A stretch of DNA of 64,000 bases from a virus. The DNA lies in IMG/VR virus record IMGVR_UViG_3300042298_003052, positions 32,001 to 96,000 of that record, one strand, 5' to 3'. Positions 3,446-56,560 of this stretch are shown one piece after another; the stretch's first letter is position 1; every line of letters begins with the position of its first letter. Under the pieces are notes generated by a model. The model made no database searches. It saw nothing but the letters and a program-made list of their open reading frames with translations, and was not told the origin of the DNA. Both the position numbers and the translations under genes were made by a program.

Positions 3446-3572
3446 ATTTTGTTCCTTTCCCATTGAGGGAGTTTTTTGGATGATTTTTAGACTAGCGTGT
3501 ATTCCTTCAGCTTGGGCTTTAAGAACCACACCAATCAGTATAATACAGATATCCAATATTGTGTAGTATCTT

Positions 3573-4043: not shown

Positions 4044-4147
4044 TTAAGGTAGCGATCGTCCCTCCTTCTCTATCGATTTAAGCTATAGTTTTGATCAAGC
4101 GTTCCGTTAGGAGCGTTTTGTTTCTGTACCTATTGAAAGAGGATTCC

Positions 4148-19722: not shown

Positions 19723-20100
19723 ATGAAAAGATTAACAACGATCGCTCTTTTAACACTAATATTTGCGATCTTCCCACATCAATCTGTTAAGGCACAAGAA
19801 TCGTTTTTAAGATTAGATAACCACTGTGAAGGACAACTGTACTTTCACAAGACTGTTTGCAAAGAAGTTTACCAGGATTACATAATTTGGTACGTTCTCC
19901 AAGATAACACGCTAGTAGGTATTATTGTATTCGATGATGCTTATAGCCTAAATGTCATTGAATCAGGAGAAAACTCCTATGTCATATTCTCAAAGGAAAC
20001 CAGTCAAATCATTACACAATCAGAAAACGGTTTCAGTACGATCTCACCCTATCGTGAAACATTTGAATATATTTTAAGTGCGATCGCGTCAGTACAATAA
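19723..20100 (+). CDS. Hypothetical exported protein
   Basis: Sec signal peptide MKRLTTIALLTLIFAIFPHQSVKA/Q. Confidence 0.6.
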   Translation: MKRLTTIALLTLIFAIFPHQSVKAQESFLRLDNHCEGQLYFHKTVCKEVYQDYIIWYVLQDNTLVGIIVFDDAYSLNVIESGENSYVIFSKETSQIITQSENGFSTISPYRETFEYILSAIASVQ

Positions 20101-23100
20101 TCCGTTCGGTCGTTTCTGTTCAGTTAATACTTGGAATACTGCGGCTCTGACCTTCTGAGAAAGATCTCTTGCTGCCTTATTATCTTTCTCAGGATTATTA
20201 CCATCAGAGTTGATCGTGATGGGTACGGTAACAGACGTGCTACCCCCGCTAGGAGCCTTGATAGCAGGCGTACTAAACGAACCGCCTACGACACCCCCAT
20301 TCTTAAAGTTAAGCACGTTCTCGTCCACGCCATAGCGCTTAGCGATCGCTTGTTGCTGTCTGTTCAATACCCATTCTCCAGGTGATACCACAGCTAACCT
20401 AGCTTTTGGATTACCTTCGCGTTTTAATGCCTGTCCTATAGCTTCTGTAGAAGCTAACTTATCCAATGTTGACTGCGATCTTCCTATAACACCACCTTTT
20501 GCAAAGTTCTCTATACCTAAACCTGTATCAGTTTTTATAACACCACCATCTTTGAAGAACATCCCTAGTATCGTGGATAATAAAGACTGGAATACACCTC
20601 CTATACTGAATCCTCCTTTAGATACCGCTGTGCTACTAGAACCTGAAAATACACCCATCACAACAGAACCGAGTTGAGCCCCGCCGCGATCTGCTCCAGC
20701 TTCTATAGCACTTTGTATAGACTGAGCACCGTTTTCAAATGTAAGATCAAAACCACCTAAGTCAAATAAACCTTCAGAAATGGTACCTAAAGCGTTTGGT
20801 GTTTGTATGGATACAGCCGCTTGTTGTATTGCCTGAGCCCCTAATTGTAATGAAGATAAAACCATCTCACCACCTAATCTTAATGACGCTGAGGCTTGTT
20901 CTGCCCCTGTTGTTAACGTAACATCTTCTGTACTAGCACCGAATAAAGATTTTCCATATTCTGTTAGACTTGGATCTCGTATTTCACCAGTAGAAGGGAA
21001 TAAGTAAGAACTATAATCCATTGCGCCTTGTAACAGTGGATTATATCTAGGGGTCTGCATTAGTACATTAGGATCTTCTTCGGGCGATCGCGATCTGCTA
21101 GTTCCAAAAAGCATTTCTATAATACCGTTACCAGTATCACTAGATATTCCAGCAGCACCACCGAATATACCTGCAAACAGATTATTGGTTAGCATTTCTG
21201 CTGCCAAGTTCATCAGATTATCTATTAAACCGTTGACAAAATCGTTAAAGGCTTCTCCTACTGTTTTGGTACCTTTCATAAGATCGCTGAATAGTCCTTG
21301 AACTGGACCTCTTACGTTCTTTATGACATCGGGTAACATTGAGGCTTCTTGCCTTATCTGATCCATTTTGATGTCGTTTATCTTTGATAAGGATTCGCTC
21401 ATAGCTTTGAAACCCTCATCTGTGAGTTTCCCAGCATTTTTTAGTTTTTCTAATTCTAATATGGCATTTTGATAATCTAAGCGTTGCATATCCAACAAGA
21501 ATGGTAACCGCTCTTGTTTCATAGCTTCCGTTGGACTAGCACCAAATGCGCCTAGATAAGCGTCTTGTGCTCCCATTAAATCTGTTACTCCTCCAGGGCC
21601 AACAAGAGGATTTCTTGATTGTTCTATTTGATCGGCTCTAACTTGTAAAGCTTGTTCTAGCTCTAATGTTTGTAGTTTTAATTGGGCCGTTTCTTCTATT
21701 AATAAACGACTTCGTTCTCTAGTCTCCTCTGTTAGACCCTTACTACCTTCGTATAAATCGAATATTTGACTTTCTAAATCTTGTTGTATTTTAAGAGCTT
21801 CAATTTCATAAGACAGGTCTCTAGCGTTTCCTGCTTCCCCTGTTCTATTTAATAAAGGTGTAAGAGCTTCCACATTAGCAGCTCTTTGTTCTAACAAAAA
21901 TGATGAATTGTTAAGTCTTAATTGTTCAGTATTTCTATCAATATTGTAACCTAATATCTCTAACGCTAAAATTTGACGTTTAATAGATTCTGCTAATAGC
22001 TGGTCATAGCGATCTCTATCTAATCCGCTATTTAACTGTTCTTTTAAGCCAAATTGATACTCTTTCTCTTTTTGTATTATATCAGCAGCATCAGCTTGTT
22101 TTTCTAACTCTTCTGCCAGCGCCTGCTCTCCATCATTTCTTAACAATTCAGCCTGTTGTCTTAAATTTTCACCAGTTAGTTCAGTTAACTGATTAATAAA
22201 CTCCATATAGCGTCTTTCTTCTTCCATCTTGTATTCTTCTGAAATTTTTAGTAAAGCCTCTCCTTCCATAGCGGTTAGATCAGCTAAGTTCTTTCTAAGA
22301 ATATCTATAAGTGGTTGTTTCTGAGATATTATCTCTCTGAAACCCTCTTCAATTCGTCTTACATCTTCTTCTTTGGCTCCAGCCTCTATAAGTTGGTTGG
22401 GCATGGTTTCTAATAACTGTGTTACGGCATCTATGTCGTTTTGAGCATCTTCGATTTGTCGTTGTAATTCTATACGACGATCTTCTATATCTCTAGATGC
22501 CATATCGAGATCATATTCAAGTTGAATTTCTGGCGTCATCCTGAATTCTGGTATACTTTGATACTTGCGATCTCTGTCTTGTCTTTCTTGTTGTAGCTTA
22601 GCATCTTCCGTCCCTCTCTTAGCAGTTATTCCTTCTCGATTAACTTCAGAAAACATACTATCTATTTGAGCGTCGAATCTTTCATCTGCTAACGCTTTCA
22701 TTTGTTCAATCAATTTTATTTGATCGTTAGCGTTCTGTTGTAGCATGTTTACATACTTTTGATTTTCTGATAACAATTGGTTAGAACTTTGTGTATAACT
22801 ACTTACATCTAAAGTTGTAGCACTACTACTGGTTGTTGTCGGACGCGATCTGTTGATATAGCCTGTTACATTACTGATAGCTTGGGTAGTATATTTATTA
22901 TCTGGTCGTAATTCTTCTGCTCGTCTAAAATTGATCAATGCTGATTGGTAGTCCTTTTTCTCAGTCAGAGCATAACCTTCGCGCATGAATCTTTCAAATT
23001 GCTCTTTCTCTGACATGAGTTCATTCATACCGATGCCGCTATCACGAAGGAATTGTTCAGCTCGTTGACGGTGATCGCCTTGTCTGAATCTCGGCGCAGC

Positions 23101-26100
23101 GTTTCTTACGGTAGTTTGATTACTATCCTTACGATTCCAATAACTTTCTCCAGCTTGACCAGCTAATATTGCTGAATAGGCGTGTCGTATATCATGTTCA
23201 CCAGGTCTGAAACCGCGATCTAGCAAATATCTTTCTATAGCAGGCATTTGTTGAGCTATACTTTGTTGGGTATTGGTTCCATATTTACGTTGGTTATCAG
23301 GACTGAATTGGATCAAACCCTTATATAAATTATTATCACCTCCTCGTATGTTAGGGTTGAAAGATCCTGCTGATTCCCAAGACATAAGAGCGGCAAATTC
23401 TCTTGGATCTAATCCTAAACGTTGAGCTGCGGCTATCATAGCTTGTGCCCCAGCAGGGTCGCTTTGAACTCTTTCTGCGGTTCTTACCGTGCCACCCATA
23501 GGTATTCTACCCGGACCCATACTAGCCACTCTAGAGGCCACTGGGGCGTAGTTTCTAAACATCTCTACCCCAGACTGTTGAGGCGTGCTCTGAGCTGTTC
23601 TAGAGGCCGGTTGTGATATAGGATTAATATTGACATTTACGCCCTGTAAGTTACGTGCAACTCCACCACCGGCGTTCATAGCAGCTAACCACTGTTGAGC
23701 GTCTACGAACTGACCATTAACTTTCACCTTCATATCGAGATGGTGTTGTATTACTTCTCCAACGAGCTGTCCCATCGATACATTGGTGTTCTCTCCTATG
23801 CCTATACCTAAGGCTTTTTTAACAGATTCTAATTCTAAATGATTAAATTGCAAATCAATAGGTATGCCTTTAGCGTCCTGAGTCGTTATTCTCACTTGGA
23901 CAGCATTACCTCTATCACCCTTTTGTTCAGCTATGTCTATTACCCTAGCCGTACCAGAAAAAGGAGCTGCTACATCAGCACCTCTTCCTCCTCCTACTTT
24001 TGAATCCCAGTCTATACCAGCATGATATTCTTGTCGTCCATTTCGTGTTCTACCAGCCCTGAACGATTGTCCTTCAGTAGGTTTATAACTTACTAATGAC
24101 TCTATAGATTGCCCCATCAATGGAGAAGCTACGTTTCTACCATTTGTACCTTGACTACCAATAACACCTTGATCTATTTGAGGTATACTTAATGCAAATT
24201 GTTCATTTTGTCGAAGAGTATTGAATAATTGATTCATAACATCCATTTTCTGTTTTAAGAAATCAGATGTGCTTTTTAATTGTTCTCCTATGACATTGAT
24301 AAATCTTTCTAATATGTTCATCATGCCACTGAAGTGATCGGTTCTCAATTTACCCATAGTACGAGTTATCGTATTACTGGCATTAGCAACTTTGCGATCG
24401 TTTTCAAATTCCTTAAAACTGTGAGCGATTTCTTCAGTTTGTTGACCCACCTCTATCAACATATCTTCCAGTTGACGACCCATTTGCCATAATTGTTCTT
24501 CTAACTGTCTTTTAGTAGTTTCTAGTTCTGCTACTAATTGATCTGTTTCTAGTCCCGTTTGTTCAAATTTTTGTCGTACTTCTACTAAATTTGTGAGGGT
24601 CTTGCTTAAAGAAGAATCTTCTCCTATATTATCTATGGCAGCTTGTATATCAGCCGCCGTAGCATTCATTGCTAAATTAGCGTTTTCTAATGCTTTTATG
24701 TATTCAGGATCATAAGCAATAGTTTCTAGTTTTTGTAAAGAATCTCGATTTATAGCTATTTTTTCAGAGGTCATTTGTTGTTGAACAAGATTCTGTGTAC
24801 CTTCTAACAAACCTGAATTACCAGGAGCAACAGATCTCATCAAAAGAGCGTTCTTTTGTGCTGATCTCATTTCCAAATTATAATAGGCGTTTTCCATTTC
24901 TGCGTTAACAAGTCTAAATCCTCTAGCCAATAGATCAAGTCTGGTTACTGTATTTGCTATACCGGAATTTATTTTATCAATAAGCGATTTAGTAAGTTTT
25001 AAATCTGATTCAAGTGTTGCAATATTGCCCTGCAATGATTCTCTACGAATATTATCTTCTTCAGAATCTCCCAGTCTTGCTAGTTCTTCTTTTCTTAACT
25101 TAATAGCAGATTTGATATTCTCTTCTGATAACTGTAGGTTTGCTAGTTGTTTACCAACGGGGATATATAATTTTTCTCTTTCTGCTATCAGATTATTTAT
25201 CTGTTCGTTTAAGTCTCTTTGTTTTTCTACATCTTCCCTAGAGGTTCCTTGGAGTTCTTGTTGAGCACTCTGTAACCGCACATCCAGATCTATTATTTCT
25301 TGTAATTGTTGACCAGGTTTATTACCAGGATACAAAGTGGTCCTGGCCTCTTCATATATTTTACCTGAATAAGATTGCAGATCGTTTATAGCTATGTCTG
25401 CCTGTTCAGCTTTCACATCCTCCCATGTCCTGCTTAAATCTAAACCTATATTTTTCAAACCTCCTAAAGCTAAACCTATTGGGTCTGTATAATCTCGAAT
25501 GTCGTTTCCATCAGTTATGTTACCGATAAAACTTTGTGTTCCTCTTTCAAATATACGTGAAGCCTTATCCCCTATTAGACCACCAAAGAACGTATCTTCA
25601 AGTAAAGATTCTCCACTGATTAATCGTTCTAATCCTGAACTTATCCCTATACCATCTTTAAACGCTTCAAAAAACTTTTTAGCGGAATTACTTATATCGA
25701 CTATCTGTTTAATTCCTGTTACGGATTTCAATACGTTTCCGTATGATTCTCTGCTACCATCTATATTACTAACCGATTCAATAATATCTCCGACGTAACC
25801 TCCTAGTCCACCACCAGTAAATAATTCTTTGATGGCTGTTACACCTCCAGACTCCTTAAACACCTTAAAACTGGGTTGTTCATTAAACTCTTTTGTTTTT
25901 TGACGAGCATCTTCTAATGTTTTTGTATAATCTTCCCACGCTTTTTTATTTGAGTCAGCAAGATCCTTAGCACCTCCGGAAGCGTCTCCGAAACCTTTAC
26001 TGAAAATCTTAAACACGTCCGTGGCCACAGTTATGACAGCAAACCACGTTAAGAAACTCTTACCAAATGTTATTAATTCTTGCTTCATTCTAGTAAACAA

Positions 26101-29100
26101 ACCAGAAAACGATTCGCCAATCAACGCGATCGTTTGGTTCATTCCTGCAAATTTAACAAAAAATTTGGCTAGTTCTTGTACGAGGGTAGCACTTATTGTT
26201 ACCAACAAAGCGGTAAACACGACGCTAAGTGCTACAACATTTTCTCTTAGTATTTGAATACCTTTGGTTGCTATGTTAAGTCCGACAACTCGAATAGGGA
26301 TTGTGGTGTTACCATATCCTTGTTGGAATAACGTAATTTCATTATTTAATTTATTTATGGCCGTTTGGGCGCTTCGTGCGCTACCTGACACACCCATAGC
26401 GGTTTCAGCACTTAGTTGTTGTGCAAATTTAGGTAATAGATCTTCGGCCATAACTTCTCCGGCTTGCATCATTTTACCTAATTCTTGTGTAGTAACACCC
26501 ATAGCCCGCGCTGCTACAGATATAGACCCCGGTAAAGCTTCTGCTAATTGACCTCTTAGTTCTTCCGCAGAAACTACTGTCTTGTCCATCATCTGACTCA
26601 GTGCAGTGAAAGCTTGCTGTTGTTCCTCTGGAGTCATTTGATAAACTACAGCAGCTTGTGATATAGCTGAAAATATTTGACGAGTGCCTTCGCCTTCTAG
26701 TCGTGTACCTTGAGCACTAGCTCCTAATTGGGCGAAACCTTGCATACTTGATTTCAAGTCTCCTCCCAAACTTATAACTTTATTCCTTATCAAATCTATG
26801 TTTTTAGCCCCTTCGCTCGCTGATCCAGAGACAAAATTAATTGTCGTGGCCATGTTTTCGAGTTCTACAGCAGTTTGAAAAGCGGCTTCTTCAAATGAAA
26901 ACAATGTTCCTACGAGTGGTACTACAATATAATTGAAAAACAAAAACCCTTTGGTGATGCTCATCATAGCAGGAATATTTTGAGACAATCCCTCAAATAC
27001 TTCACCCAACGATCTACCTAATTTTGGTACAAACGTTGCCATGTTTTTCATAGATTCCATAGAATCCAACATGAATGCGTATGCAGGCCCTATAACAGGT
27101 ATTTCAGCTTCCGGGCGTTCTCCTGAAACACTGAATGGCATAAAAGATTCTTCTGGTGGTGTTTTTGCCCATTCTTTTATGTCATTTACGGTTTTTGTTT
27201 TAAGACTTTTTATACTTTCCCTAACATAGTTGATACCATCAGATATACCGTTAGATATACCTTCACTTATAAACCTACCTATCTTTATTGCCCATTCAGG
27301 AGGGCTTTTTATATCAAATGTGCTATGTGTTATATCTATAACAGCTTCTGCCATATTCATGGCGGCATTAGTCGCTTCTCTGCTACTATTATTTATGCCT
27401 ATTGCTATACCAGACCCTAACTCAGATCCTATATTTTTACTAGCGGGTAATATATTTTCTGTTTTCGTGTTGTTATAACGCTGATAAGATCTTATTATAT
27501 CCCGAGTATATTGATGAGAGAATCCATAGGCGTCTCTTTCTAGTTTATTGATGTAATGTGGATTTATATCAATACCTTGTTCTTTTGCAGATTTTTTTGC
27601 AAGTTCTACAGATCCTGCTATATTACGAGCATATTCGCGATCCGATTCTCTATTATATGACGGTGTTAAAAGAAGATTTCTTGAGTAAGGATCATTTATC
27701 TTTTGAAATCCAACTTGTGCGGCATGTCGTATCTCATGTACTATTGTATCCATTGCTTCAAACAAGGAAATTATATCTTCAGTTATATTAGAATATTTTT
27801 TGTTTACTGTTTCGTAAGCTAAATCTAACTCGTCGTTATAATCATTATAAATATCATCACTAGTGTTGTTATTTAAACGTTTATATACCTCTCTCACTTC
27901 ATCTTCAATAACTTTGAGACTAATAGGTATATCAAGACCTTTTATATCATGTAAGGATTCCAACGCCTCTTCGGTTTCATCATCCAAAAAGATTGTGTTG
28001 TATTCTGGTAAATAGGCTCCTCCTGCTCTAGTTCCTAATAATTGCATAGATGCATTTTTAGCTGTGGGCATCTCTTTTACTTCTACATCGGAAAGCGCTG
28101 CTATTTCTGTAACTAGTTCTTCAAACACTTTTCTTGCTTTAGGCGTAATGTCGTCTAAAGTATCTATAATTTCTCCTATATTTCTAGTTACTTCGTTAGA
28201 CATGTCTTCGTCAAATGAATCTTTTGTATTTCGATCAACGGACCATAACGGTTGTATTTTATTGTTTTTAACTTCTTCTGCTTTTACATCGATCGTGTTT
28301 GTATGTGTTTTTAACAAATAAGCTTGTTGATAAGATTGACTTTGACGTAAACGATCGAATCTCATAACAGGCCCAGAATTTCCGGGTTCTAAACCTTTTA
28401 TTGTCTCACCTAGTTCGTGTACTCGTGCGATAAGAGACGGGGTTATACCTTCTTCTAGATAACGAGTAAGTATTTCTCGTATCTCGTTAGATTCATCTAG
28501 ATAATGAGGACTGAAATGCCCTTTCACATTAGGTATAATAGCCTCTTTTTGTCCAGTAAATCTCTTTAACGGATCTCCTTCTCCAATTAAAGATATTACG
28601 TCTGATTTAATAGCTTGAAATGCTCCTAGTAAGGGAGTACCCATACTTAAAGCTTCTGAAATAATTCCTATATTTTTAAGTATTTCTTGGGCTTCTCTAA
28701 CTATAAAACCTCCAGCAGAATGTCCTACAAAACCTATTTCAACATCTGGACGTTCTTGTTTAACGGCATAGGCTTGTTTAGCAAGACGGAGAGCTTCTTC
28801 ATTAATACCCTTTCTAACAGCCTTCATGGGCATAATGATCGCATCCATTACGACCCTTGTCAAACCTACATCATTTAAGGTTCCAGAAACATCAAAGTTT
28901 TTATTCTCGAAAGGGATCGTGTGAGTCCCTTGAGGGATCATCGGTTTTAGTTTGTCTGTTATTTCGTTACTGATTCTACCTTTTGTGCCAGTAAAACCAG
29001 ATGATACAAATATAATCTTTTTAGCATCGGCAGGGATTTCATGAACGACAGGATGAATGTCAGAATCAGGAGGTTCAGTTAGAACTCGTCGAGCGTTAGA

Positions 29101-32100
29101 ACGTACATCTTCTTTGTACTTGGTGACAATAGTTTCATTGGGATAATTAACAATTCTTCCTACTGCCGTTCTTGCGCTCTGAACGGCTTCTGAAGTGTTC
29201 TCTAACTGACCGGCAAGAGTTAATGCCTCATTAATAGAATCTCTCAATATTGTCAACTCGTCTTTTATTACTGACATATCAAAGGCTTTTCTTAAATTGC
29301 CCTGATACATATCAGCCATCAAGTATAGATCTTCTGCAAGCTCTTTCAAAATTGAGCTTATGTTCAAAACTTTTTTAACTGCATCAGAATTTGATTTAAT
29401 ACCTTTAATCAAACCTGCTACAACCATTTTACCAAAATACTCAGTTACTTTGGAAGGACTTCTAGTTTGAAGACCCTTTGCCATCGGGTCAATAATTCCA
29501 GTCTCAACAAGACGGGTAGCCTCAGCTTTTAAAGCATTAAAACGATCGCTGAATCCGACAGGATATCCATCTATAGTTTCTTGACCTAAACTTCTAGTTA
29601 AATCAGGACGTTCTATTTCTCTAGTATTGATTTTCTCATTAGCTCTATTTTTGGCTTGAGTAGCCTGACCTTTAGCAGCTCGTGCTAAGTTTGTAAATGG
29701 TGTAGTAGCACGGTCCCCTAAAACTTTTTGTAAATCGTCTATAGCTTTCCAAGCTTCGTCCGCAGTTTTAATAATTTCAGCAGCAGCTATTTTTTGTTCT
29801 TCTCTAGAATATCGATTTTTTTTATTCTCCACTATACGACGAAGATCAGCAAAATCTTCACTGATCTTTTTAACCATTTTTTGGTAGTCAGGCGGCGGTT
29901 GAGCAGCAGTTAACTGACGAACTTGTTGTTGGGATAATGAAGGTAACTCAGCAAAGTTACTAAAATCTTGAATAATTTCAGCATCAATAATGTCAGCATC
30001 TTGAGATCGAATATCGTTTAGAAAACTAGCTAATTCTCTAAGTTTATTCTCTATCTTAACGATCTGAGATTTAAGATTTGCTAACTGATTAGGTGCTAAA
30101 GGTTTCATACGATCTTGTGGTGATATTGCGACGATCGCCTCATTAACCTCTGTTAATAATCTATTGACATATCCTTGATCATTACCAGTATCATCTCCGG
30201 CTAACAACTTTATTTTTTGAATGATCGATTCATCTGGTTCACTAGAAACTAGAGCCGTCTGTATACTAGTAATCATATCTTTGGCCGCACTTAATTTTTT
30301 ACGGGATCCTTCTATAAATTCATTGGCAGCAGGCTGTGCGCCAGATAGTAGTTTGCCAGCAGATTTAGTTAGTTGAGCAAGAGCTGTTGCGGCAGAGATA
30401 CTTTTTTGAGCTAATTCAGCAATTGCCGCCGCTCCATCTTCAATACCAAGTGCGGAAGCTCTAGCAATTTGTTCTGGACCAATATCAGATATCTTTTCGA
30501 TAATGGGAGCATTAGCATCAAGCGAATCAGGATCTCCAGGTACTCTACGCATTATTCTATTTACTGCCGCCACAAGACGTGTTTCTGCCGCGATGGCCAT
30601 CGCTTCACCTGTTGACTCAGCGATATTAGTAAGACCCTCGCCAACGCCTTGCAAGAAAGATATGGCCATTTCAGAACCAATTGCAACGGCTTCCTCCGTA
30701 GACACCGTTACAGATGATCTTACCTCTCTAAGATCCGGTAGAGGTGTAGGTGGAGGTGATATGAGATTAGCGACGTAAGATTGAGTACCTAGAGTTGCTT
30801 GAGATTGTCTTGTTTTACGCTGATTCCGTTCCGCGACACGCTGAGACGTTTCAGGATCTAATCTAAGATTAGGTTGTACCTGATTGTTTATAAAATCAAC
30901 TAGCGTTGATGATATCTTCGTAGGATCAGGTGCGCGATCGAATGTACGAAGACCACCCAGTTCACCACCCTCTTCATAACCTTGAGCGACTAAGGATTCT
31001 AAATCTAATCCTTCGATCAGTTCAAAACGTCCGAGTTCTTTAGCTATAACTCGTCTAATTCCTTCCCATGCTTTGCGAATACCTTCTTTACGATCTTCTT
31101 CAATCGCTTTGGCCCATTCTTCCAGAGCCTTTTCTTGTTCTTTTGCTGACAATTTTTCAAACTCAGGCATTTTATCGGGTTTGATTATACTACGTCCATA
31201 ATCGATAGGAACCACCTTTCCTTCGTCTGATACAAAAACATTACCTGGATGATAGTCTCCGTGGGTCACACCTTTTTCATGAAGTGCTCTCAACGATGCT
31301 CCAGCCTGTTTAGCATACGCTGATACGTCATCTTTTGTCATATCTTTATTAGCAAGGTAGTCTCGACCTTCTTGACCTGCTATTGCTCGTTGAATAATAA
31401 AATCATCGCCCGACGCAAGAACGTCTGGAGCGACACCTTTAGCAATTTCCATAGCCTGAGCCTCACTAGCCATGCTGACAGCATTTTTAGCTAGTTTGTA
31501 AACAGCATCTTTGTTAGCATTTATAAAAGCGATACCTTTTGCCCCCTGTCCTAATATATATGCCATATTAGGATCTATTTTAGCTGATGGCTTACCCATA
31601 TCCTCAAGGGTCTTATTCATACCGCTAAGACGTTCCATCCAAGGTTCTGTAGCAGGTTGAGTATATTTCTTGGTTTGCCACTTTGTTTTAGGTGCATCAG
31701 GATCTCTAGGTGTTGGTCCTCGCATCCCGGTGGGAGGACCAACACCCTCTTTATAAGCTTTATTAAATATATCTTGTATATTTATCCCTTCAAGCAAAGG
31801 CATTTTTCCTTCTTTTACTAGCTTTAAAAGAAGCTCCATTGTTTTTTCGGTTCCTTCAGGAACCTTTGCCAAAATTCGCATAAAAGCTTCTTCGATTCTT
31901 TCTGGTGCTCTTTCGGCATCAGCTTTTATTTGTTCTTTAGAAGCGTTTACCTTGGCAGCACCTAAATCGATAGTTTTCATGCTTCCATCTTCCATCACAA
32001 AGATGTTACCTGCATGATAATCTCCGTGAGTAACTTTTTTTTCGTGTAGAGACTTGAGAAGTTTAGCTGCACCTTCTACATATTGAATGATAACTCCTTG

Positions 32101-35100
32101 GGTAAGCTCACCTGATTTTTCAAGTTCTTTAACCATGCTCCCCATATCCTTACCTTTTAATACTTCTTGCACTAATCGGTTATTTCCTACGTCATATACT
32201 TGAGGAGCTAATTCTGGGCCTACTGCTCTAAGAGCTTCGGCCTCAGGCTGCATCATTTTCTTAGTTAAGAGATTTAATGGATAGGGAGCATCCTTAAATT
32301 GTTCATAATCAACCCATTCGGGAGCACCTATTTTATTCATCTTAAAACCCTTTTCACGGGCTTGATCAGTAAAAATGATTCCGTTTACACCTTCACCGAG
32401 TACTTGGGCCTCGGCAGGGTTTAGATAACCGGATACAGCGGTTCCTCGTTTGTGTTGTTTGTTTAATTGAGCTAAATATTCCATCTGCTCAGGTTTAAAT
32501 ATAGGTGATTTCTCAGGAAAGTCAGGAGCCACCCCAAAGACTGAGTAGAATTTTTCCACCATATCAATGAGATTATCTGGATCTATTTCGTTACCGTTCT
32601 TCAATGATTGAATTAACGTGTCATATATCGATAAAAACGCTTCTACATCTTGCTTTGCTTGACCTGTTAGATTTTTCATTGATTTTCTCAGATCAGCTTT
32701 TAATTCATCATAGTTATACTCTATGTCAGACTTTTCTTGAGAATCGCCATAAGTTTTTCTTAATCGTCCCTCGGGAGTAACAAAAGTGTATTTGCCTGCT
32801 TTTTGTTCTTCGACAGCAGTGGGATCTCCAATCAAGACTCCTAATGTTCGTCGCATTGACTCTTGTAATCCTACTTGTTCTCCAGGACCGGAGTACATCA
32901 GATTATAAGCACGAACATTAGAAATCGAACGTTGTGTAGCCTGCTTTGCCAAAATGGGATCTATAACTTCTGGAGAAACAATCCGTTGTCTTACCTCATT
33001 AGGCTTAGTACCGCCATCGTATATTTCTCTTAAGATATCAGAGTTAAGTTTATTAGCGATCGCTTTAATTGTACCAGTAGGTAAAACAAATACTTCTTCT
33101 ATACTGGCTAACTCTTTAGTGATAGTATCTTTGTATTCGTCTATACGAGCCTTTATTTCCGTTTCATCTAGACCTAGATCTTTACTTTCTTTTTTAATTT
33201 TTTGTTGTTCCTCTATTTGAGATTTATCTGAGTACCTGTCAGATAAATTAATCAGAAATTCTGCATCGGCTGTTTTAGCAAAAGTTTTAATGTTTTCTAG
33301 TGTGATTTGCGACTCCGTTTTTTCTAATCTTAAGAACTTAGCTACTTCTTCTTGAACTTTAGGATTTTGTATAAATTGTCCTAAACTGTGTCCTGCGCCA
33401 GCACCAGGGATTATGGTTGTTGCTTTACCTGGACGCATAATACCTGACAAATTTTTAATAGTCCCTTCAGGAAGACCATAATCAGTCTCCATCTTTTTCA
33501 TTTCTTTTTCAAGCATTTTTTGATGTTGTTCTGACAATTTACTCATGTCAGAATAACGTTCACCAAATGATGCCAAAAATATAGGATCCATGTCACCTAC
33601 AAAGGCTTTAAAATTTTGAAGAGATGCTGTATTGGTTAAACCGTAAGTTCCCATTGTTAACCCAACACCTTTAGTGTTTTTAGCACCTCCTCGTTCAGCT
33701 ATAGCAGTGGCTTCTTCAGCAGCAAATGTACCACCAGATGTTCCAGCAAAAACGAATTTTTTACCGGGGTATTTTTTCTCGTAAGCCCTTCGTGTAGCTT
33801 CGAGTTTGATAGCGTCAGGGTTATAACCCGCATCTACGGCCATAGAAATAAGTTTTTCAAATTGAGAAGCTTCGTCACTCATTAATTGTTTCTCTAGATC
33901 GCTTCCAGGTGTTACTTGTCCTAATGAACGTAGTAAATCTAATAAAATACTTTTAAATTGTCTAATGGTTTGACCGGATTGTTTGTCATTAGAAAACTTA
34001 TTAGGAACAGGAACGGTAGCAACCTGTTCACCTAATAACTCTTTAAGAAGTACATTCGCGAAATAGGTATTGTCCCCAGGTCTTTCGTAATCATTACCAG
34101 GGATACCACCAGCGATTAATGCAATTGTTTCTTTGTCGTTGATACCTTCAATATCTGGGACATCAATCACTTCAGCTAATTGTTTGGATAGCTCCATAGA
34201 TTGAGCCAGCATTACACGTTTTTGAATACGATACGGTTGGGCGATTGCTCTAACGCCCACACCTGCCACTCTTCTACCACCTTCTGCTACCTCTTCCCAC
34301 GGTGGACGGATGTATTCGTCAATTCTAGATTTGGCACGTTTAGGATCGTTGTAAACTCGAACATCTTCTCCTACACCTACTAACAAATCTTCAAAAGTTT
34401 TTATGTTTCTAACTAACTTTCTGGGATCAAGAAAACTATCTAGTTTGCGTCCCAAATATGCTATGTCATCGCCTACTTCCTTTAAACCTCCTCTGTACCC
34501 AAAAGCTTCGGCTGTTACCATGGCAAGTCCTTTTGTTCGATTATATCCATATCGACCAAAATTATATCCAACTGTTTCGGCATCTGATCCTGTTTTACCC
34601 TCTATATATTTTTGAGCGCCTTTTGCAAAATCGTATGAGAGTGTTTGTCCCATACCTTCCACTGCGCCAGTGATAAACGTTTCAAAAGCCCTAGCTGGTA
34701 AACCAACAATTTTATCGACTAAAGTTTCTTTACTACTTGTATGGATAATTTTTGACATCTTCATCGGCATGTCGTCTTGAGACTTAATGTTCTGTTTGAC
34801 TGACATCGACAAAGCTGATATAGAATTGGCTAAATTCTCATTTGCTATTGTTAGACCTTTATTTTGTAGATGCAATTCTTGTAAAGAATTGTCCAACCGT
34901 AATAAAGATCTGCTTGGTAAGTAAGAATCTTCGTATGAGATTTCAGACGAAGACGTTTCTGTAGTGATTTTTACTTTCTTATCTGTTATACCATCGAATT
35001 GGTTTTTGAAATTACTCAATTCTTCTACATTAGTTTTTGGTGTTAACGGATTATCACCAAAATATTTGTTAACTTCTTTAAGGTGTTCACGCTTTCTCTC

Positions 35101-35307
35101 AATATGTTTATTTAATTTGGCTAAAGGTTCATGATCTACTGTTGGTTTTAATGTTTCTAGTTTAGTTTTACTTGTTATTCCTTTAATATTTCCTTCTATA
35201 TCCTTACCAGCTCGACTCGCAAGTTTTTGAATATCGGCAAGCTGTTTTGTAAACTTGGTATCGTCAAGTCCTAACTCTAAAATTAAACTCCCAAGAGTTG
35301 TTGCCAT
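20089..35307 (-). CDS. Giant multidomain tape measure protein (5072 aa)
   Basis: MATTLGSLILELGLD N-terminus; tape measure core (FTALSQMMDK..AEELRGQLAEALPG, ~26.3-26.9 kb); FAKGGV/FKNGGVV C-terminus; lies downstream of the tail chaperones; embedded enzyme motifs are described in findings. Confidence 0.9.
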   Translation of the reverse strand: MATTLGSLILELGLDDTKFTKQLADIQKLASRAGKDIEGNIKGITSKTKLETLKPTVDHEPLAKLNKHIERKREHLKEVNKYFGDNPLTPKTNVEELSNFKNQFDGITDKKVKITTETSSSEISYEDSYLPSRSLLRLDNSLQELHLQNKGLTIANENLANSISALSMSVKQNIKSQDDMPMKMSKIIHTSSKETLVDKIVGLPARAFETFITGAVEGMGQTLSYDFAKGAQKYIEGKTGSDAETVGYNFGRYGYNRTKGLAMVTAEAFGYRGGLKEVGDDIAYLGRKLDSFLDPRKLVRNIKTFEDLLVGVGEDVRVYNDPKRAKSRIDEYIRPPWEEVAEGGRRVAGVGVRAIAQPYRIQKRVMLAQSMELSKQLAEVIDVPDIEGINDKETIALIAGGIPGNDYERPGDNTYFANVLLKELLGEQVATVPVPNKFSNDKQSGQTIRQFKSILLDLLRSLGQVTPGSDLEKQLMSDEASQFEKLISMAVDAGYNPDAIKLEATRRAYEKKYPGKKFVFAGTSGGTFAAEEATAIAERGGAKNTKGVGLTMGTYGLTNTASLQNFKAFVGDMDPIFLASFGERYSDMSKLSEQHQKMLEKEMKKMETDYGLPEGTIKNLSGIMRPGKATTIIPGAGAGHSLGQFIQNPKVQEEVAKFLRLEKTESQITLENIKTFAKTADAEFLINLSDRYSDKSQIEEQQKIKKESKDLGLDETEIKARIDEYKDTITKELASIEEVFVLPTGTIKAIANKLNSDILREIYDGGTKPNEVRQRIVSPEVIDPILAKQATQRSISNVRAYNLMYSGPGEQVGLQESMRRTLGVLIGDPTAVEEQKAGKYTFVTPEGRLRKTYGDSQEKSDIEYNYDELKADLRKSMKNLTGQAKQDVEAFLSIYDTLIQSLKNGNEIDPDNLIDMVEKFYSVFGVAPDFPEKSPIFKPEQMEYLAQLNKQHKRGTAVSGYLNPAEAQVLGEGVNGIIFTDQAREKGFKMNKIGAPEWVDYEQFKDAPYPLNLLTKKMMQPEAEALRAVGPELAPQVYDVGNNRLVQEVLKGKDMGSMVKELEKSGELTQGVIIQYVEGAAKLLKSLHEKKVTHGDYHAGNIFVMEDGSMKTIDLGAAKVNASKEQIKADAERAPERIEEAFMRILAKVPEGTEKTMELLLKLVKEGKMPLLEGINIQDIFNKAYKEGVGPPTGMRGPTPRDPDAPKTKWQTKKYTQPATEPWMERLSGMNKTLEDMGKPSAKIDPNMAYILGQGAKGIAFINANKDAVYKLAKNAVSMASEAQAMEIAKGVAPDVLASGDDFIIQRAIAGQEGRDYLANKDMTKDDVSAYAKQAGASLRALHEKGVTHGDYHPGNVFVSDEGKVVPIDYGRSIIKPDKMPEFEKLSAKEQEKALEEWAKAIEEDRKEGIRKAWEGIRRVIAKELGRFELIEGLDLESLVAQGYEEGGELGGLRTFDRAPDPTKISSTLVDFINNQVQPNLRLDPETSQRVAERNQRKTRQSQATLGTQSYVANLISPPPTPLPDLREVRSSVTVSTEEAVAIGSEMAISFLQGVGEGLTNIAESTGEAMAIAAETRLVAAVNRIMRRVPGDPDSLDANAPIIEKISDIGPEQIARASALGIEDGAAAIAELAQKSISAATALAQLTKSAGKLLSGAQPAANEFIEGSRKKLSAAKDMITSIQTALVSSEPDESIIQKIKLLAGDDTGNDQGYVNRLLTEVNEAIVAISPQDRMKPLAPNQLANLKSQIVKIENKLRELASFLNDIRSQDADIIDAEIIQDFSNFAELPSLSQQQVRQLTAAQPPPDYQKMVKKISEDFADLRRIVENKKNRYSREEQKIAAAEIIKTADEAWKAIDDLQKVLGDRATTPFTNLARAAKGQATQAKNRANEKINTREIERPDLTRSLGQETIDGYPVGFSDRFNALKAEATRLVETGIIDPMAKGLQTRSPSKVTEYFGKMVVAGLIKGIKSNSDAVKKVLNISSILKELAEDLYLMADMYQGNLRKAFDMSVIKDELTILRDSINEALTLAGQLENTSEAVQSARTAVGRIVNYPNETIVTKYKEDVRSNARRVLTEPPDSDIHPVVHEIPADAKKIIFVSSGFTGTKGRISNEITDKLKPMIPQGTHTIPFENKNFDVSGTLNDVGLTRVVMDAIIMPMKAVRKGINEEALRLAKQAYAVKQERPDVEIGFVGHSAGGFIVREAQEILKNIGIISEALSMGTPLLGAFQAIKSDVISLIGEGDPLKRFTGQKEAIIPNVKGHFSPHYLDESNEIREILTRYLEEGITPSLIARVHELGETIKGLEPGNSGPVMRFDRLRQSQSYQQAYLLKTHTNTIDVKAEEVKNNKIQPLWSVDRNTKDSFDEDMSNEVTRNIGEIIDTLDDITPKARKVFEELVTEIAALSDVEVKEMPTAKNASMQLLGTRAGGAYLPEYNTIFLDDETEEALESLHDIKGLDIPISLKVIEDEVREVYKRLNNNTSDDIYNDYNDELDLAYETVNKKYSNITEDIISLFEAMDTIVHEIRHAAQVGFQKINDPYSRNLLLTPSYNRESDREYARNIAGSVELAKKSAKEQGIDINPHYINKLERDAYGFSHQYTRDIIRSYQRYNNTKTENILPASKNIGSELGSGIAIGINNSSREATNAAMNMAEAVIDITHSTFDIKSPPEWAIKIGRFISEGISNGISDGINYVRESIKSLKTKTVNDIKEWAKTPPEESFMPFSVSGERPEAEIPVIGPAYAFMLDSMESMKNMATFVPKLGRSLGEVFEGLSQNIPAMMSITKGFLFFNYIVVPLVGTLFSFEEAAFQTAVELENMATTINFVSGSASEGAKNIDLIRNKVISLGGDLKSSMQGFAQLGASAQGTRLEGEGTRQIFSAISQAAVVYQMTPEEQQQAFTALSQMMDKTVVSAEELRGQLAEALPGSISVAARAMGVTTQELGKMMQAGEVMAEDLLPKFAQQLSAETAMGVSGSARSAQTAINKLNNEITLFQQGYGNTTIPIRVVGLNIATKGIQILRENVVALSVVFTALLVTISATLVQELAKFFVKFAGMNQTIALIGESFSGLFTRMKQELITFGKSFLTWFAVITVATDVFKIFSKGFGDASGGAKDLADSNKKAWEDYTKTLEDARQKTKEFNEQPSFKVFKESGGVTAIKELFTGGGLGGYVGDIIESVSNIDGSRESYGNVLKSVTGIKQIVDISNSAKKFFEAFKDGIGISSGLERLISGESLLEDTFFGGLIGDKASRIFERGTQSFIGNITDGNDIRDYTDPIGLALGGLKNIGLDLSRTWEDVKAEQADIAINDLQSYSGKIYEEARTTLYPGNKPGQQLQEIIDLDVRLQSAQQELQGTSREDVEKQRDLNEQINNLIAEREKLYIPVGKQLANLQLSEENIKSAIKLRKEELARLGDSEEDNIRRESLQGNIATLESDLKLTKSLIDKINSGIANTVTRLDLLARGFRLVNAEMENAYYNLEMRSAQKNALLMRSVAPGNSGLLEGTQNLVQQQMTSEKIAINRDSLQKLETIAYDPEYIKALENANLAMNATAADIQAAIDNIGEDSSLSKTLTNLVEVRQKFEQTGLETDQLVAELETTKRQLEEQLWQMGRQLEDMLIEVGQQTEEIAHSFKEFENDRKVANASNTITRTMGKLRTDHFSGMMNILERFINVIGEQLKSTSDFLKQKMDVMNQLFNTLRQNEQFALSIPQIDQGVIGSQGTNGRNVASPLMGQSIESLVSYKPTEGQSFRAGRTRNGRQEYHAGIDWDSKVGGGRGADVAAPFSGTARVIDIAEQKGDRGNAVQVRITTQDAKGIPIDLQFNHLELESVKKALGIGIGENTNVSMGQLVGEVIQHHLDMKVKVNGQFVDAQQWLAAMNAGGGVARNLQGVNVNINPISQPASRTAQSTPQQSGVEMFRNYAPVASRVASMGPGRIPMGGTVRTAERVQSDPAGAQAMIAAAQRLGLDPREFAALMSWESAGSFNPNIRGGDNNLYKGLIQFSPDNQRKYGTNTQQSIAQQMPAIERYLLDRGFRPGEHDIRHAYSAILAGQAGESYWNRKDSNQTTVRNAAPRFRQGDHRQRAEQFLRDSGIGMNELMSEKEQFERFMREGYALTEKKDYQSALINFRRAEELRPDNKYTTQAISNVTGYINRSRPTTTSSSATTLDVSSYTQSSNQLLSENQKYVNMLQQNANDQIKLIEQMKALADERFDAQIDSMFSEVNREGITAKRGTEDAKLQQERQDRDRKYQSIPEFRMTPEIQLEYDLDMASRDIEDRRIELQRQIEDAQNDIDAVTQLLETMPNQLIEAGAKEEDVRRIEEGFREIISQKQPLIDILRKNLADLTAMEGEALLKISEEYKMEEERRYMEFINQLTELTGENLRQQAELLRNDGEQALAEELEKQADAADIIQKEKEYQFGLKEQLNSGLDRDRYDQLLAESIKRQILALEILGYNIDRNTEQLRLNNSSFLLEQRAANVEALTPLLNRTGEAGNARDLSYEIEALKIQQDLESQIFDLYEGSKGLTEETRERSRLLIEETAQLKLQTLELEQALQVRADQIEQSRNPLVGPGGVTDLMGAQDAYLGAFGASPTEAMKQERLPFLLDMQRLDYQNAILELEKLKNAGKLTDEGFKAMSESLSKINDIKMDQIRQEASMLPDVIKNVRGPVQGLFSDLMKGTKTVGEAFNDFVNGLIDNLMNLAAEMLTNNLFAGIFGGAAGISSDTGNGIIEMLFGTSRSRSPEEDPNVLMQTPRYNPLLQGAMDYSSYLFPSTGEIRDPSLTEYGKSLFGASTEDVTLTTGAEQASASLRLGGEMVLSSLQLGAQAIQQAAVSIQTPNALGTISEGLFDLGGFDLTFENGAQSIQSAIEAGADRGGAQLGSVVMGVFSGSSSTAVSKGGFSIGGVFQSLLSTILGMFFKDGGVIKTDTGLGIENFAKGGVIGRSQSTLDKLASTEAIGQALKREGNPKARLAVVSPGEWVLNRQQQAIAKRYGVDENVLNFKNGGVVGGSFSTPAIKAPSGGSTSVTVPITINSDGNNPEKDNKAARDLSQKVRAAVFQVLTEQKRPNGLLY

Positions 35308-35413: not shown

Positions 35414-35806
35414 TTATTGAGGTTTGACTTCAGGAACGACTTTAGGTTGTGGTTTTTTGACTTCTTTTCTCTTAAGGATAGAAGTAAAGTCTTCTCCAGC
35501 TAAAGCAGCTTTCACCGTTACAACGCACTTACCGCCTTCTATTGATGTCGTAACAGATTCGACACCCTCCAAGGTTACACCAGCGTGTTTAACGATGTCG
35601 CCTTCTTCATCATGAGAAAGAACAAAACGGCTATAAGGATTATAAACTTCTGATCCCAGTTCCGCTTTGAAAACGACATAAGGAACGCCGTCAACGTCTT
35701 CTTTTTCAACACTTGTTACATTATCAAGTACAGATTCTCCGTGACGAATCTGTTTACCGTCATCAGTATGGACAAGTTCAAATTTGCTTTGTAACAGATC
35801 AGCCAT
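35414..35806 (-). CDS. Hypothetical protein with internal duplication
   Basis: Start at MADLLQSKF (35806), overlapping the upstream stop; two related ~45-aa units. Confidence 0.65.
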   Translation of the reverse strand: MADLLQSKFELVHTDDGKQIRHGESVLDNVTSVEKEDVDGVPYVVFKAELGSEVYNPYSRFVLSHDEEGDIVKHAGVTLEGVESVTTSIEGGKCVVTVKAALAGEDFTSILKRKEVKKPQPKVVPEVKPQ

Positions 35807-36215
35807 CTTTGATATACCTCTCGCGTATCTCAGGAATAGTTTGTAGGAAAGCGGCAACAGCAGGAGGTATTCGCTTATCCTTAAGCAACCGATAGACAAT
35901 AGATCTCGTCTTACTACTAAATACAGTCTTCTCCGTGCCTTGTTTCATAAGATCAGGAAAAGGCACGATGTCTTCTGGCTTTATTTGTTTAGAGTCCTTA
36001 CCTGCAAAACCATTAAACAGACCAGACCAACCGATCGCATGAGTTATGGATTTTACATTGATGTCTTGTCTATACGCCTCCTCATAGAATTTAAGCGTCT
36101 CAAATATCAACGCTGGATTCTCATCACCAAAATGTTCGTAATCTAGACGGGGGTCGGTACAACCGAGATATTGGAGTCTGAGATATATGTCTCCCCACTC
36201 AATAATAGCGATTCC
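35799..36215 (-). CDS. Tail assembly chaperone C-terminal (T) segment, reached by -1 frameshift
   Basis: The -1 frame is open from the slippery GGGGGAA (36212-36218) and reads GIAIIEWGDIYLRLQYLG...; it has no ATG near its 5' end. Confidence 0.75.
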   Translation of the reverse strand, partial: GIAIIEWGDIYLRLQYLGCTDPRLDYEHFGDENPALIFETLKFYEEAYRQDINVKSITHAIGWSGLFNGFAGKDSKQIKPEDIVPFPDLMKQGTEKTVFSSKTRSIVYRLLKDKRIPPAVAAFLQTIPEIRERYIKDG

Positions 36216-37402: not shown

Positions 37403-38359
37403 TTACGCGCCCAGAGGAGGCGTATAGACGTTAGACAGAGGATCGAACGCGCCAGTAGGTGCAGTATACTTGAAGGAGGAACCTTGGAACTGAAGGTCAG
37501 CCTGCACTGTAATAAGGTCTTGTACAGGTGAACTTTGATTACCAGAGGTCAAAATGGCAGCTCCAGCAAATTCTTCACCAAAGGGGCGTCTGAGGGTAGC
37601 GTAAATTTCAGAACCAAAGAAGCGATCGTCGTAAAGAATCTTCATGAGAAGATCAGCACCGGGATCGCCAATAATTCTTTGGAAAGTGAATGACATGGTT
37701 CTGTTACTACCTGTAGTAACCATTTCCATACCACTACCACTGAGGAAGTTGGCTGCGTCAACAGTCTTGGGCTGAGAAGACGGAGAAGCGTCAGTGGCAC
37801 CAGCGATGTAAACGGTAGCTGTAGTTTTAGCTGTATGGTTTTCAACAGCTAAAACAGTAGTAGGTTGAACTTGTAGACGTGTAGCGCCAGCAGGAGCAAA
37901 ATCGCTTACCGTTACACTATACGCACCATTGTTAAATGTCAGTTTCTCACCAGGATAGATATTGGTGGGAAGGGTCGTAACAGGTAACACTTCACTACCG
38001 ACAGTCAGCACAGAGGCGTCTACAGTACCAGCAGTGGAAGCAGGAATAGCTGCTGACAACGGGTACAAAAGAGTTACCGCTGTAGCACCAGTCACCGCTG
38101 TGCTAGTACGAGCTTCAACACCGTTTGCAAAACGAATCTTGGAAAAAGCAGGAATAGTGGCAGTAGCAGCAAGTGTCAACGAAGTGGCACCTTTAGCTGT
38201 AGGAGCTGCCGAAGTGGTAACGTTGATCGCAGCAGTAGCCGCTCCTACAGTAACAGTATATTCCGTAGGTACCCGAGTACCTTTAGGAAGAAGCACAAAC
38301 CGAAGTTCTGTAAATACGCTAGTGCCTCGTTCGCTAGCGTAGTTGATAATTTGTCCCAT
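37403..38359 (-). CDS. Major tail tube protein
   Basis: Ala/Thr-rich insertion, beta-rich core, strong AGGAGG RBS, terminator downstream, canonical position. Confidence 0.7.
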   Translation of the reverse strand: MGQIINYASERGTSVFTELRFVLLPKGTRVPTEYTVTVGAATAAINVTTSAAPTAKGATSLTLAATATIPAFSKIRFANGVEARTSTAVTGATAVTLLYPLSAAIPASTAGTVDASVLTVGSEVLPVTTLPTNIYPGEKLTFNNGAYSVTVSDFAPAGATRLQVQPTTVLAVENHTAKTTATVYIAGATDASPSSQPKTVDAANFLSGSGMEMVTTGSNRTMSFTFQRIIGDPGADLLMKILYDDRFFGSEIYATLRRPFGEEFAGAAILTSGNQSSPVQDLITVQADLQFQGSSFKYTAPTGAFDPLSNVYTPPLGA

Positions 38360-56497: not shown

Positions 56498-56560
56498 ATG
56501 ACCTGTGCAATACTATAGCACCTATGATATGATATCGACAACCAATTAGCTTAGGAACCA

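Follow-up and report, generated by a model that had tools for sequence, protein, structure and literature searches.

A 5,072-residue phage tape measure protein with predicted serine hydrolase and kinase modules ahead of its core

Results

A single giant reading frame encodes a tape measure protein with an extended front half

We analyzed a stretch of viral DNA of 64,000 nucleotides, here called the window, which corresponds to bases 32001-96000 of the IMG/VR record IMGVR_UViG_3300042298_003052. On its minus strand, an open reading frame (ORF) at 20089..35307 runs as a single open frame over 5,072 codons and occupies about 11% of the genome. The source record has a length of 139,448 bp, carries direct terminal repeats and is rated complete; the virus is a complete 139-kb long-tailed phage, and its host is probably cyanobacterial. 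A first-pass annotation, based on the letters of the window and its reading frames, had described the product as a tape measure protein of 5072 amino acids (aa) that carries a number of enzymes. The ORF is real and contains a tape measure core, and all motifs listed in that annotation were recovered at the positions given for them. By composition, the whole chain of 5,072 aa is free of cysteine. All features of this ORF given below lie on the minus strand.

The core was identified as Pfam TMP_3 (PF20155) at aa 2808-2994 (26326..26886), with 83.4 bits in the protein scan against a cut-off of 41 and 89.2 bits in the genome scan, which places it where it had been proposed (about aa 2810-3000). 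The same stretch is matched by many tape-measure PHROGs and by four solved tape measure structures, among them 9cuy_W with an E of 1.7e-19. In these four proteins, the core starts at about residue 270-470, whereas it is preceded by 2,807 residues here. Two hydrophobic segments, recognized by their composition, border it on both sides, one just before the core at aa 2787-2806 (26890..26949) and one just after it at aa 3017-3047 (26167..26259).

A further tape-measure-type element, the SPSK module, occurs twice. Copy 1 (aa 1905-2000; 29308..29595) was delimited by profiles and alignment and contains an invariant SPSK at 1950-1953; copy 2 (aa 2624-2702; 27202..27438) was found by profiles. The module matches C-terminal regions of other tape measure PHROGs, and a family profile run against PDB sequences matched residues 955-1113 of the tape measure of phage 80alpha (6v8i, E 5.9e-12). 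As it thus resembles the C-terminal regions of other tape measures, we regard the module as tape-measure fabric and not as cargo or enzyme. The 'SPS motif' noted in the first-pass annotation is therefore present at aa 1950 and invariant, but it marks no enzyme and belongs to this repeated module. The two ends of the chain are shared as well: the N-terminal segment (aa 1-120; 34948..35307) is the most widely shared piece and also occurs in the tape measures of phages CrV-01T and Cr-LKS4, and the C-terminal end (aa 4909-5072; 20092..20583) is common to the same two tape measures and to phrog_24.

The back half of the protein (aa ~2620-5072) is an ordinary large tape measure, composed of SPSK copy 2, the core with its hydrophobic flanks, coiled-coil-like stretches (judged from composition only), an M23-like and an SLT-like domain, and the C-terminal end. 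It is extended by the front half (aa 1-2620), in which hydrolases, kinases and a lineage-specific insert with an HEXXH motif are set between linkers of the tape measure type. A cluster look-up of aa 690-960 within this half gave a best score of 0.82 and was uninformative. Tail length scales with tape measure proteins at about 0.15 nm per residue. At 0.15-0.16 nm per residue, the predicted tail would be about 370 nm long if aa 2620-5072 alone measure and about 760-800 nm if the whole chain does. This scaling is consistent with published data (PMC9022992).

The front half contains two paralogous hydrolase modules

Hydrolase module 1 spans aa 385-660 (33328..34155) and was delimited by alignment and model; its candidate triad consists of Ser524 within GTSGG (starting at 522), Asp574 and His640. 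Module 2, which is lipase-like and a paralog of module 1, spans aa 2085-2323 (28339..29055), with Ser2197 in GHSAGG (starting at 2195), Asp2245 and His2264. By our own estimate, a G-x-S-x-G motif by itself is expected by chance. Both triads, S524/D574/H640 and S2197/D2245/H2264, are invariant in 9/9 aligned sequences of 39-49% identity, and in an alignment with 13 more distant members the Ser of module 1, its neighboring Gly, the Asp and the His are conserved to at least 90%.

An AlphaFold2 (AF2) model of module 1 (aa 380-700, from 8 sequences) displays a strand-elbow-helix layout at a predicted local distance difference test score (pLDDT) of 63 and a predicted template modeling score (pTM) of 0.60. 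An exhaustive VIA search with this model yielded Z scores of 8.6-10.9 over 146-179 aligned residues. Among the 50 listed titles, 36 are esterases, lipases, cutinases, thioesterases, PETases, dienelactone hydrolases or alpha/beta hydrolases, while the other 14 name no fold; the mycobacteriophage envelope esterase LysB is also among the matches (3hc7, Z 9.0). Since unmatched models commonly reach a best Z of 7-8, the uniformity of this list weighs more than the score. A search of BFVD with the same model returned tape-measure fragments first (E 2.9e-8), followed by two entries whose lengths fit the proteins gp048 and gp047 of the Aphanizomenon phage vB_AphaS-CL131 (CL131), and then by viral alpha/beta hydrolases, DUF676 and LysB. 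From their lengths, the two entries are presumably gp048 and gp047 themselves.

The family profiles of the two modules align with an hhalign probability of 96.1% (E 3e-9) and with their nucleophile motifs in register. The modules are thus paralogs, which extends the fold assignment to module 2. The best Pfam match of module 2 is DUF676 with 17.0 bits (cut-off 20.3; E 0.0045), and all of its sub-threshold matches are of lipase or phospholipase types (DUF676, the Tle1-like family of the type VI secretion system (T6SS), PGAP1, LCAT, Lipase_3 and Tle3). Searched against PDB sequences, the family profile found tape measures only and no hydrolase, and a Pfam scan of 13 diverse homologs gave no match (0/13) to an alpha/beta-hydrolase family at E <= 0.001. 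Taken together, the model, the invariant triads and the paralogy bear out the two alpha/beta-hydrolases that had been read from motifs at about aa 520 and aa 2195, and the two modules define an alpha/beta-hydrolase family that no Pfam model recognizes.

Two minimal kinases lie between the hydrolase modules

Two putative mini-kinases were located by Pfam profiles and motifs. Kinase 1 (aa ~960-1180; 31768..32430) has its glycine-rich loop at 970, HGDYHAGN at 1094 and DLG at 1113; kinase 2 (aa ~1240-1440; 30988..31590) has the loop at 1252, HGDYHPGN at 1349 and DYG at 1368. In a segment scan, kinase 1 passed three Pfam cut-offs (given as bits/cut-off: Pkinase 34.8/31.7, ABC1 27.7/22.9, RIO1 24.5/22), and kinase 2 passed that of ABC1 (26.7 bits; cut-off 22.9) but remained below that of Pkinase (24.9 bits; cut-off 31.7). 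Both copies keep the glycine-rich loop, the beta-3 Lys, HGDxHxxN and DxG. The kinase-like domains noted earlier around aa 1095 and aa 1350 are thereby placed above Pfam cut-offs, with intact predicted catalytic motifs.

The beta-3 Lys, the catalytic loop and DxG are present in all 10 kinase modules from 9 proteins, two of them here and eight in as many relatives; in 5 of the 8 relatives' modules, the glycine-rich loop lies partly outside the extracted stretch. The profiles cover Pkinase positions 74-154 of 263 and RIO1 positions 50-179 of 187, and in neither kinase do they cover a full eukaryotic-type C-lobe with activation segment and substrate-binding helices. As coverage is restricted to the N-lobe through the DxG strand, we classify the two modules as minimal kinases in the style of RIO and Bud32. 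The catalytic-loop motif is found in 9/158 proteins of the family survey described below, and this protein alone has two copies.

A lineage-specific HEXXH insert and candidate wall-cutting domains complete the chain

An orphan insert at aa 2326-2604 (27496..28332) contains HEIRH at 2524 and may be a zincin, an assignment that rests on the motif only. The chance expectation for HExxH in this protein is 0.023, and HEIRH together with a later ERDAYGF would make a possible gluzincin pair. In a Pfam search at E <= 10, the insert matched DUF6782, a putative metallopeptidase family, and nothing else (E 0.0073 over 13 residues); among its language-model neighbors, at a score of 0.92, are clusters in which a minority of the members is SprT-like, DUF3920 or Zn_peptidase_2. 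A tblastn search against phages at E <= 1 found nothing, and a single-sequence AF2 model reached a pLDDT of 41.6 and was unusable. The insert is absent from 10/10 close homologs, whose alignments jump across it. Its sole relative, found by a word-index search over shorter proteins, is a fragment labeled P0012 (we use the labels P0002, P0003, P0010 and P0012 for homologs and L006 and L007 for related loci), which is 97% identical there and 61% identical in the first 681 aa. Of the HEXXH peptidase suggested earlier around aa 2525, the motif is therefore present, while the fold is not substantiated by the model or the 13-residue match.

C-terminal of the core, an M23-like metallopeptidase domain at aa 3740-3880 (23668..24090) carries HAGIDWD at 3762 and HHLDM at 3855. 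The canonical second motif of M23 is HLH. Here, HxxxD is present and the second motif reads HLD, as it does in 6/9 aligned sequences including P0002. The stretch has no Pfam M23 match even at E <= 10, and its match to the metallo-endopeptidase phrog_7767 (E 2.6e-4) is the only one of this kind on the protein. The aligned stretch of P0002, with the same HLD, reaches 31.5 bits for Pfam M23 and lies above the cut-off of 28.7. The M23 domain proposed for about aa 3730-3870 is thus backed by HxxxD, phrog_7767 and this homolog, but it has a variant motif and no Pfam match of its own.

The SLT/lysozyme-like domain at aa 3957-4020 (23248..23439), with WESAG (3977) and GLIQF, is a sub-threshold profile match (Pfam SLT 20.0 bits; cut-off 21.3) that is accompanied by matches to a lytic transglycosidase in the PDB (9udh, E 5e-4) and to phrog_196 (E 1.1e-7). 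The lysozyme-like domain placed earlier at about aa 3950-4090 therefore has its motifs and two further matches, although the SLT score falls just short. Likewise, the TPR-like repeat consists of one tetratricopeptide repeat (TPR)-like unit at aa 4107-4137 (22897..22989), whose E of 0.0023 is below the Pfam cut-off.

Relatives share a conserved frame and exchange modules

A word-index search with aa 1-2800 returned 10 homologs of 3,435-4,653 aa, one of which is named by its source as the tape measure protein of a cyanobacterial metagenome-assembled genome. An exhaustive HMMER search with aa 1-700 gave 192 representative clusters at E <= 0.001, of which 84 remain at <= 1e-10 and 31 at <= 1e-30; most of these matches are proteins of 2,400-5,045 aa. 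The 158 proteins surveyed were all retrieved with parts of this protein (aa 1-2800, 2330-2610 and 1-700), and since the sample was seeded in this way, the share of hydrolase 1 is inflated by construction. The retrieved proteins include 94 with a length of at least 2,400 aa, of which 91 have the core and 78 have hydrolase modules (none in 16, one in 54, two in 24). Wherever both were matched, the hydrolases lie N-terminal of the core (76/76). The family is apparently a large, undescribed metagenomic set of tape measures of 2,400-5,000 aa.

The module content varies between members, with kinase, zincin and muralytic ones being swapped. A Pfam scan of 13 diverse members found TMP_3 in 12, M23 in 5, Phage_lysozyme2 in 2, and Beta-lactamase2, Hydrolase_2 and SHOCT in 1 each. 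The kinase region is common to 3/10 close homologs and the HEXXH insert to none, and P0003 has a T4-type lysozyme in place of SLT. The gene is thus a mosaic, in which interchangeable modules are set on a frame that is itself conserved and comprises the N-terminal ~120 aa, the SPSK modules, the core and ~170 aa at the C-terminus. For P0010, the identity reaches 94% over the final 917 aa (aa 4156-5072) and drops to 25-55% in all other parts. Sharp identity breaks inside the tape measure genes of P0010 and P0012 point to recent recombination between such genes.

The 90% cluster of this protein comprises 11 member sequences on 2 contigs. At locus L006, the tape measure is a single ORF of 3,625 aa. 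On the IMG/VR contig L007 (9266-18986), the tape measure region is read as three ORFs, of 1,977, 623 and 690 aa, which overlap and differ in frame; this could reflect frameshifts, sequencing errors or a truly split gene.

Named cyanophages have the frame or the hydrolases in separate form

The tape measures of the cultured Cylindrospermopsis phages CrV-01T (gp064, 4,416 aa) and Cr-LKS4 (g67, 2,987 aa) share the frame, namely homologous stretches at the N-terminus (~110 aa) and the C-terminus (~170 aa), SPSK modules and a TMP_3 core at aa 1977 and 1002, respectively. We detected neither hydrolase nor kinase modules in them, and no HEXXH or M23 module either. A tail length for CrV-01T was not found in the literature searched.

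In CL131 (MG209611, 11761-18185), gp047 (330 aa) and gp048 (1,811 aa) are annotated as hypothetical and lie directly upstream of the tape measure gene gp049. The two proteins contain four matches to the same hydrolase module family, three of them with GHSAG. Here, the modules reside in separate proteins of normal cysteine content, and kinases are lacking. The CL131 tape measure gp049 gave no BLASTP match to our protein at E <= 1e-3. We considered CL131 as a split ortholog and rejected this, as the hydrolase modules alone are shared. CL131 has a tail of 361 nm, and 23 virion proteins were identified by mass spectrometry (PMC6293099, with the tail length in Table 1). In the papers on CrV, CL131 and PA-SR01, the gene is treated simply as a tape measure.

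The tape measure and its putative cargo avoid cysteine

The absence of cysteine from all 5,072 residues extends to the relatives, as each of 10 close homologs has 0 or 1. The 31 other ORFs of the window contain 146 cysteines in 11,292 residues (1.29%), and the neighboring structural ORFs 3 in 1,931 residues. Cysteine is also absent from the tape measures of CrV, Cr-LKS4, CL131 and the Thermus phage P23-45. The unfused CL131 proteins gp047 and gp048 have 4 and 19 cysteines. In this one comparison, the enzyme modules are thus cysteine-free when fused to the tape measure and not when free. This pattern fits the notion that cargo fused to the tape measure goes through the same physical events as the latter, becoming extracellular, threaded and refolded.

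The gene is embedded in a tail module

The gene sits in a tail module on the minus strand, following a candidate major tail protein and ORFs at the position of tail assembly chaperones; further cysteine-poor, presumably structural ORFs also lie upstream on the same strand. The candidate major tail or tube protein (37403..38359) matches phrog_820 (E 2.8e-5) and, below the cut-off, Phage_tail_2 (E 0.0016). Directly upstream of the tape measure gene, two overlapping small ORFs (35414..36110) of 103 aa and 161 aa are assigned to the chaperone position by their location and had no family match in the domain and family scan. They overlap by 101 nt, and frame arithmetic puts the second in the +1/-2 frame relative to the first, where the usual shift is -1.

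Downstream of the tape measure gene, only an ORF of 164 aa and an EAL-domain gene precede a module on the other strand, which is devoted to replication and nucleotide metabolism (helicase loader, DnaB-like helicase, DNA polymerase, ribonucleotide reductase, ThyA and methyltransferases). The 164-aa ORF is not conserved when compared with the like-sized ORF following the L006 tape measure. Between 17046 and 20088 of the window, no recognizable distal-tail, baseplate or fiber genes follow the tape measure gene, and the tail-tip genes must therefore be elsewhere in the genome. The EAL protein (359 aa; 17735-18814, minus strand) is the second same-strand gene downstream of the tape measure; it has a full Pfam EAL domain (E 4.8e-59, 200 bits) and is a phage-encoded candidate cyclic di-GMP phosphodiesterase. 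Elsewhere in the window, four clustered tRNA genes (Thr-TGT, Lys-TTT, Met-CAT and Arg-TCT; 56425-58220) lie near a PhoH-like gene (54864-56183), and a protein of 422 aa (50183-51451, minus strand) has a Hva1_TUDOR domain (E 8.7e-8) and a weak DUF3140 match.

Discussion

Our findings suggest that this tape measure protein may double as a carrier. On balance, we lean towards the view that both serine hydrolases and both kinases would be brought to the host as the DNA enters. We infer that the N-terminal half would be present in virions and that, once delivered, its enzymes would be active on targets of the host. By analogy with the tape measure gp96 of phage P23-45 and with general tape measure biology, the whole chain would be built into the tail and be expelled C-terminus first at infection. 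The wall-cutting domains and the hydrophobic segments would then open the envelope, and the N-terminal half would follow just ahead of the DNA. The kinases need ATP and would therefore work on host targets at or inside the cytoplasm, before any phage gene expression; the hydrolases would do likewise, on ester or lipid substrates. The first-pass annotation had suggested that about 2800 aa of enzyme cargo ahead of the core may be injected as a package that acts before phage gene expression. The position of the core ~2,800 aa from the N-terminus, the conserved enzyme-fold domains with their modular distribution and lack of cysteine, and the gp96 precedent agree with this, but only ~1,200 of the 2,807 pre-core residues are enzyme-like, and the rest includes SPSK and helical modules.

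Several points weigh against such a carrier function. Folded domains as large as these should not fit three-fold into a tail tube with an inner diameter of ~4 nm (PMC9022992), and their packaged state is unexplained, here as in P23-45. The lipase-like hydrolases might just as well attack lipids of the envelope from the outside, and the occurrence of the module in separate CL131 proteins means that it does not need to be covalently joined to the tape measure in order to function. With respect to the fold, the model of hydrolase 1 is moderately confident only (pLDDT 63), and Foldseek found no match for it in the PDB at E <= 0.001, the best row having an E of 1.4e-3 and many weak rows being esterases. 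Neither hydrolase scores above the cut-off of any Pfam family, and for hydrolase 1 no family appears even at E <= 10. The fused hydrolase module occurs in no cultured phage of a collection of 50,697 records. Finally, gp96 and our protein share no BLASTP match at E <= 0.01, and none of 7 module profiles matches gp96 at E <= 10; in the absence of detectable sequence similarity, the analogy is architectural only.

The enzymes might instead form a kit for breaching the envelope, in which all of them act outside the cytoplasm, the hydrolases on lipids of the outer or cytoplasmic membrane or on ester-linked polymers of the envelope and M23 and SLT on peptidoglycan, and no effector would reach the cytoplasm. 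Muralytic tape measures are established, reportedly in T5 Pb2 and TM4, the sub-threshold Pfam matches of hydrolase 2 are lipases and phospholipases throughout, and LysB is among the structural matches of hydrolase 1. The two kinases with intact ATP-binding and phosphotransfer motifs would, however, find no ATP supply in the periplasm. Moreover, the N-terminus of tape measures is head-proximal, as in lambda and T5, which would let the hydrolases leave the tail last and not place them at the tip, the expected site of wall-cutting domains; we therefore consider this explanation unlikely. Alternatively, the N-terminal half may be cleaved off during assembly and have its function in the producing cell or in assisting assembly, with mature virions holding the back half alone. 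The HEXXH insert occupies the exact junction of the front half and the tape measure proper, the CL131 hydrolase modules are separate, and at 0.15 nm per residue the 2,131-aa tape measure of that phage accounts by itself for the 361-nm tail. In addition, metallopeptidase domains have been proposed to auto-process polyvalent proteins (PMC5512222). As the insert is missing from 10/10 close homologs of the same layout, it cannot be a general processing device. The front half is also as free of cysteine as the back half and the virion proteins, whereas the unfused CL131 gp047 and gp048 are not, and gp96 is present in P23-45 virions at full size (PMC10770324). Cleavage of this kind thus appears distinctly improbable to us.

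It is very unlikely that the chain is a ruler and nothing else, which sets a tail of ~760-800 nm while its enzyme-like stretches are decayed, inactive relics. P23-45 and P74-26 have tails of >800 nm with a 5,002-aa tape measure (PMC9022992), so chain length alone can be a selected trait, and the CrV-01T (4,416 aa) and Cr-LKS4 (2,987 aa) tape measures are long without hydrolase or kinase modules. Relics would have lost their motifs, though, and here the Ser, Asp and His do not vary among 9 sequences of 39-49% identity, the hydrolase 1 triad is near-invariant in distant members and the kinase catalytic motifs are intact in 10/10 modules. That several genes were falsely joined by assembly or gene calling can practically be dismissed. 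The three overlapping ORFs of L007 could be taken as a hint in this direction, but the contig is complete with terminal repeats, the 90% cluster has its 11 sequences on 2 contigs, and dozens of independent relatives, such as the 3,625-aa ORF of L006, have the same single-chain layout.

Delivery by this tape measure may be one instance of a wider principle, which we put forward tentatively and consider rather doubtful at present. Tape measures of cyanobacterial siphoviruses may be a general injection vehicle with exchangeable enzyme cassettes, in which lipase-like hydrolases would be the standard load and RIO-like kinases, zincin-like inserts, beta-lactamase-fold and various muralytic domains optional. 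The cargo would pass through the tube unfolded and cysteine-free, refold in the host and rewire it within seconds, ahead of any phage transcript, through phosphorylation and the hydrolysis of esters or lipids. If true, this would be the tail-lumen counterpart of polyvalent proteins and polymorphic toxins. Delivery of the front half would also bear on the storage of large enzyme domains in a tube of ~4 nm and on their passage through it, with cysteine avoidance as one visible signature, on the first biochemical events of cyanophage infection, and on the annotation of giant ORFs of cyanophages and metagenomic viruses, which are now labeled merely 'tape measure' or 'hypothetical'.

How does this protein compare with known systems? 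The tape measures T5 Pb2 and that of mycobacteriophage TM4 are said to carry embedded cell-wall hydrolase domains. Our protein resembles them in having wall-cutting domains (M23-like and SLT-like, C-terminal of the core) inside the tape measure; they reportedly carry wall-cutting domains only, whereas hydrolases and kinases are added here. In the literature searched, no alpha/beta hydrolase or kinase is described inside any tape measure, and neither this cargo set nor this family was found described.

A second likeness is to the polyvalent proteins, giant multi-domain phage proteins with kinases, peptidases and lysozymes for which delivery together with the DNA has been proposed and which include minimal kinases without the C-terminal subdomain and frequent zincin metallopeptidases (Iyer et al. 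2017, PMC5512222). Like these, our protein is a giant phage chain that strings together several unrelated effector-type enzyme domains. The polyvalent kinase clade differs by an insert between the catalytic His and Asp, while HGD is contiguous in 10/10 modules here. Tape measures are mentioned 0 times in PMC5512222, and Pfam scans of our protein matched no polyvalent-type domain.

The closest architectural parallel is gp96 of P23-45, a tape measure of 5,002 aa with an N-terminal RNA polymerase, with counterparts in P74-26, G20c and TSP4 (Chaban et al. 2024, PMC10770324). The RNA polymerase is present in virions within the full-size protein and transcribes the pre-early genes; its authors described the association as previously unsuspected and proposed that the enzyme works at a pore formed by the tape measure. 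As tape-measure-fused injected enzymes have thus been in print since 2024, calling our protein an 'undescribed system', as the first-pass annotation did, is too strong. Both proteins are single chains of ~5,000 aa with 0 cysteines and an N-terminal enzyme part ahead of membrane and metallopeptidase regions, and the gp96 relatives without the enzyme part (G18 and phiFa) parallel CrV and Cr-LKS4, which are without hydrolases. They differ in load, with one RNA polymerase in gp96 and two hydrolases, two kinases and an HEXXH insert here, in host phylum, and in that delivery was demonstrated for gp96 and is proposed by analogy here. If the front half is indeed delivered, P23-45 would be no oddity: long-tailed phages would widely use the tape measure as a pre-made enzyme carrier, to which kinases and serine hydrolases would add new classes of cargo.

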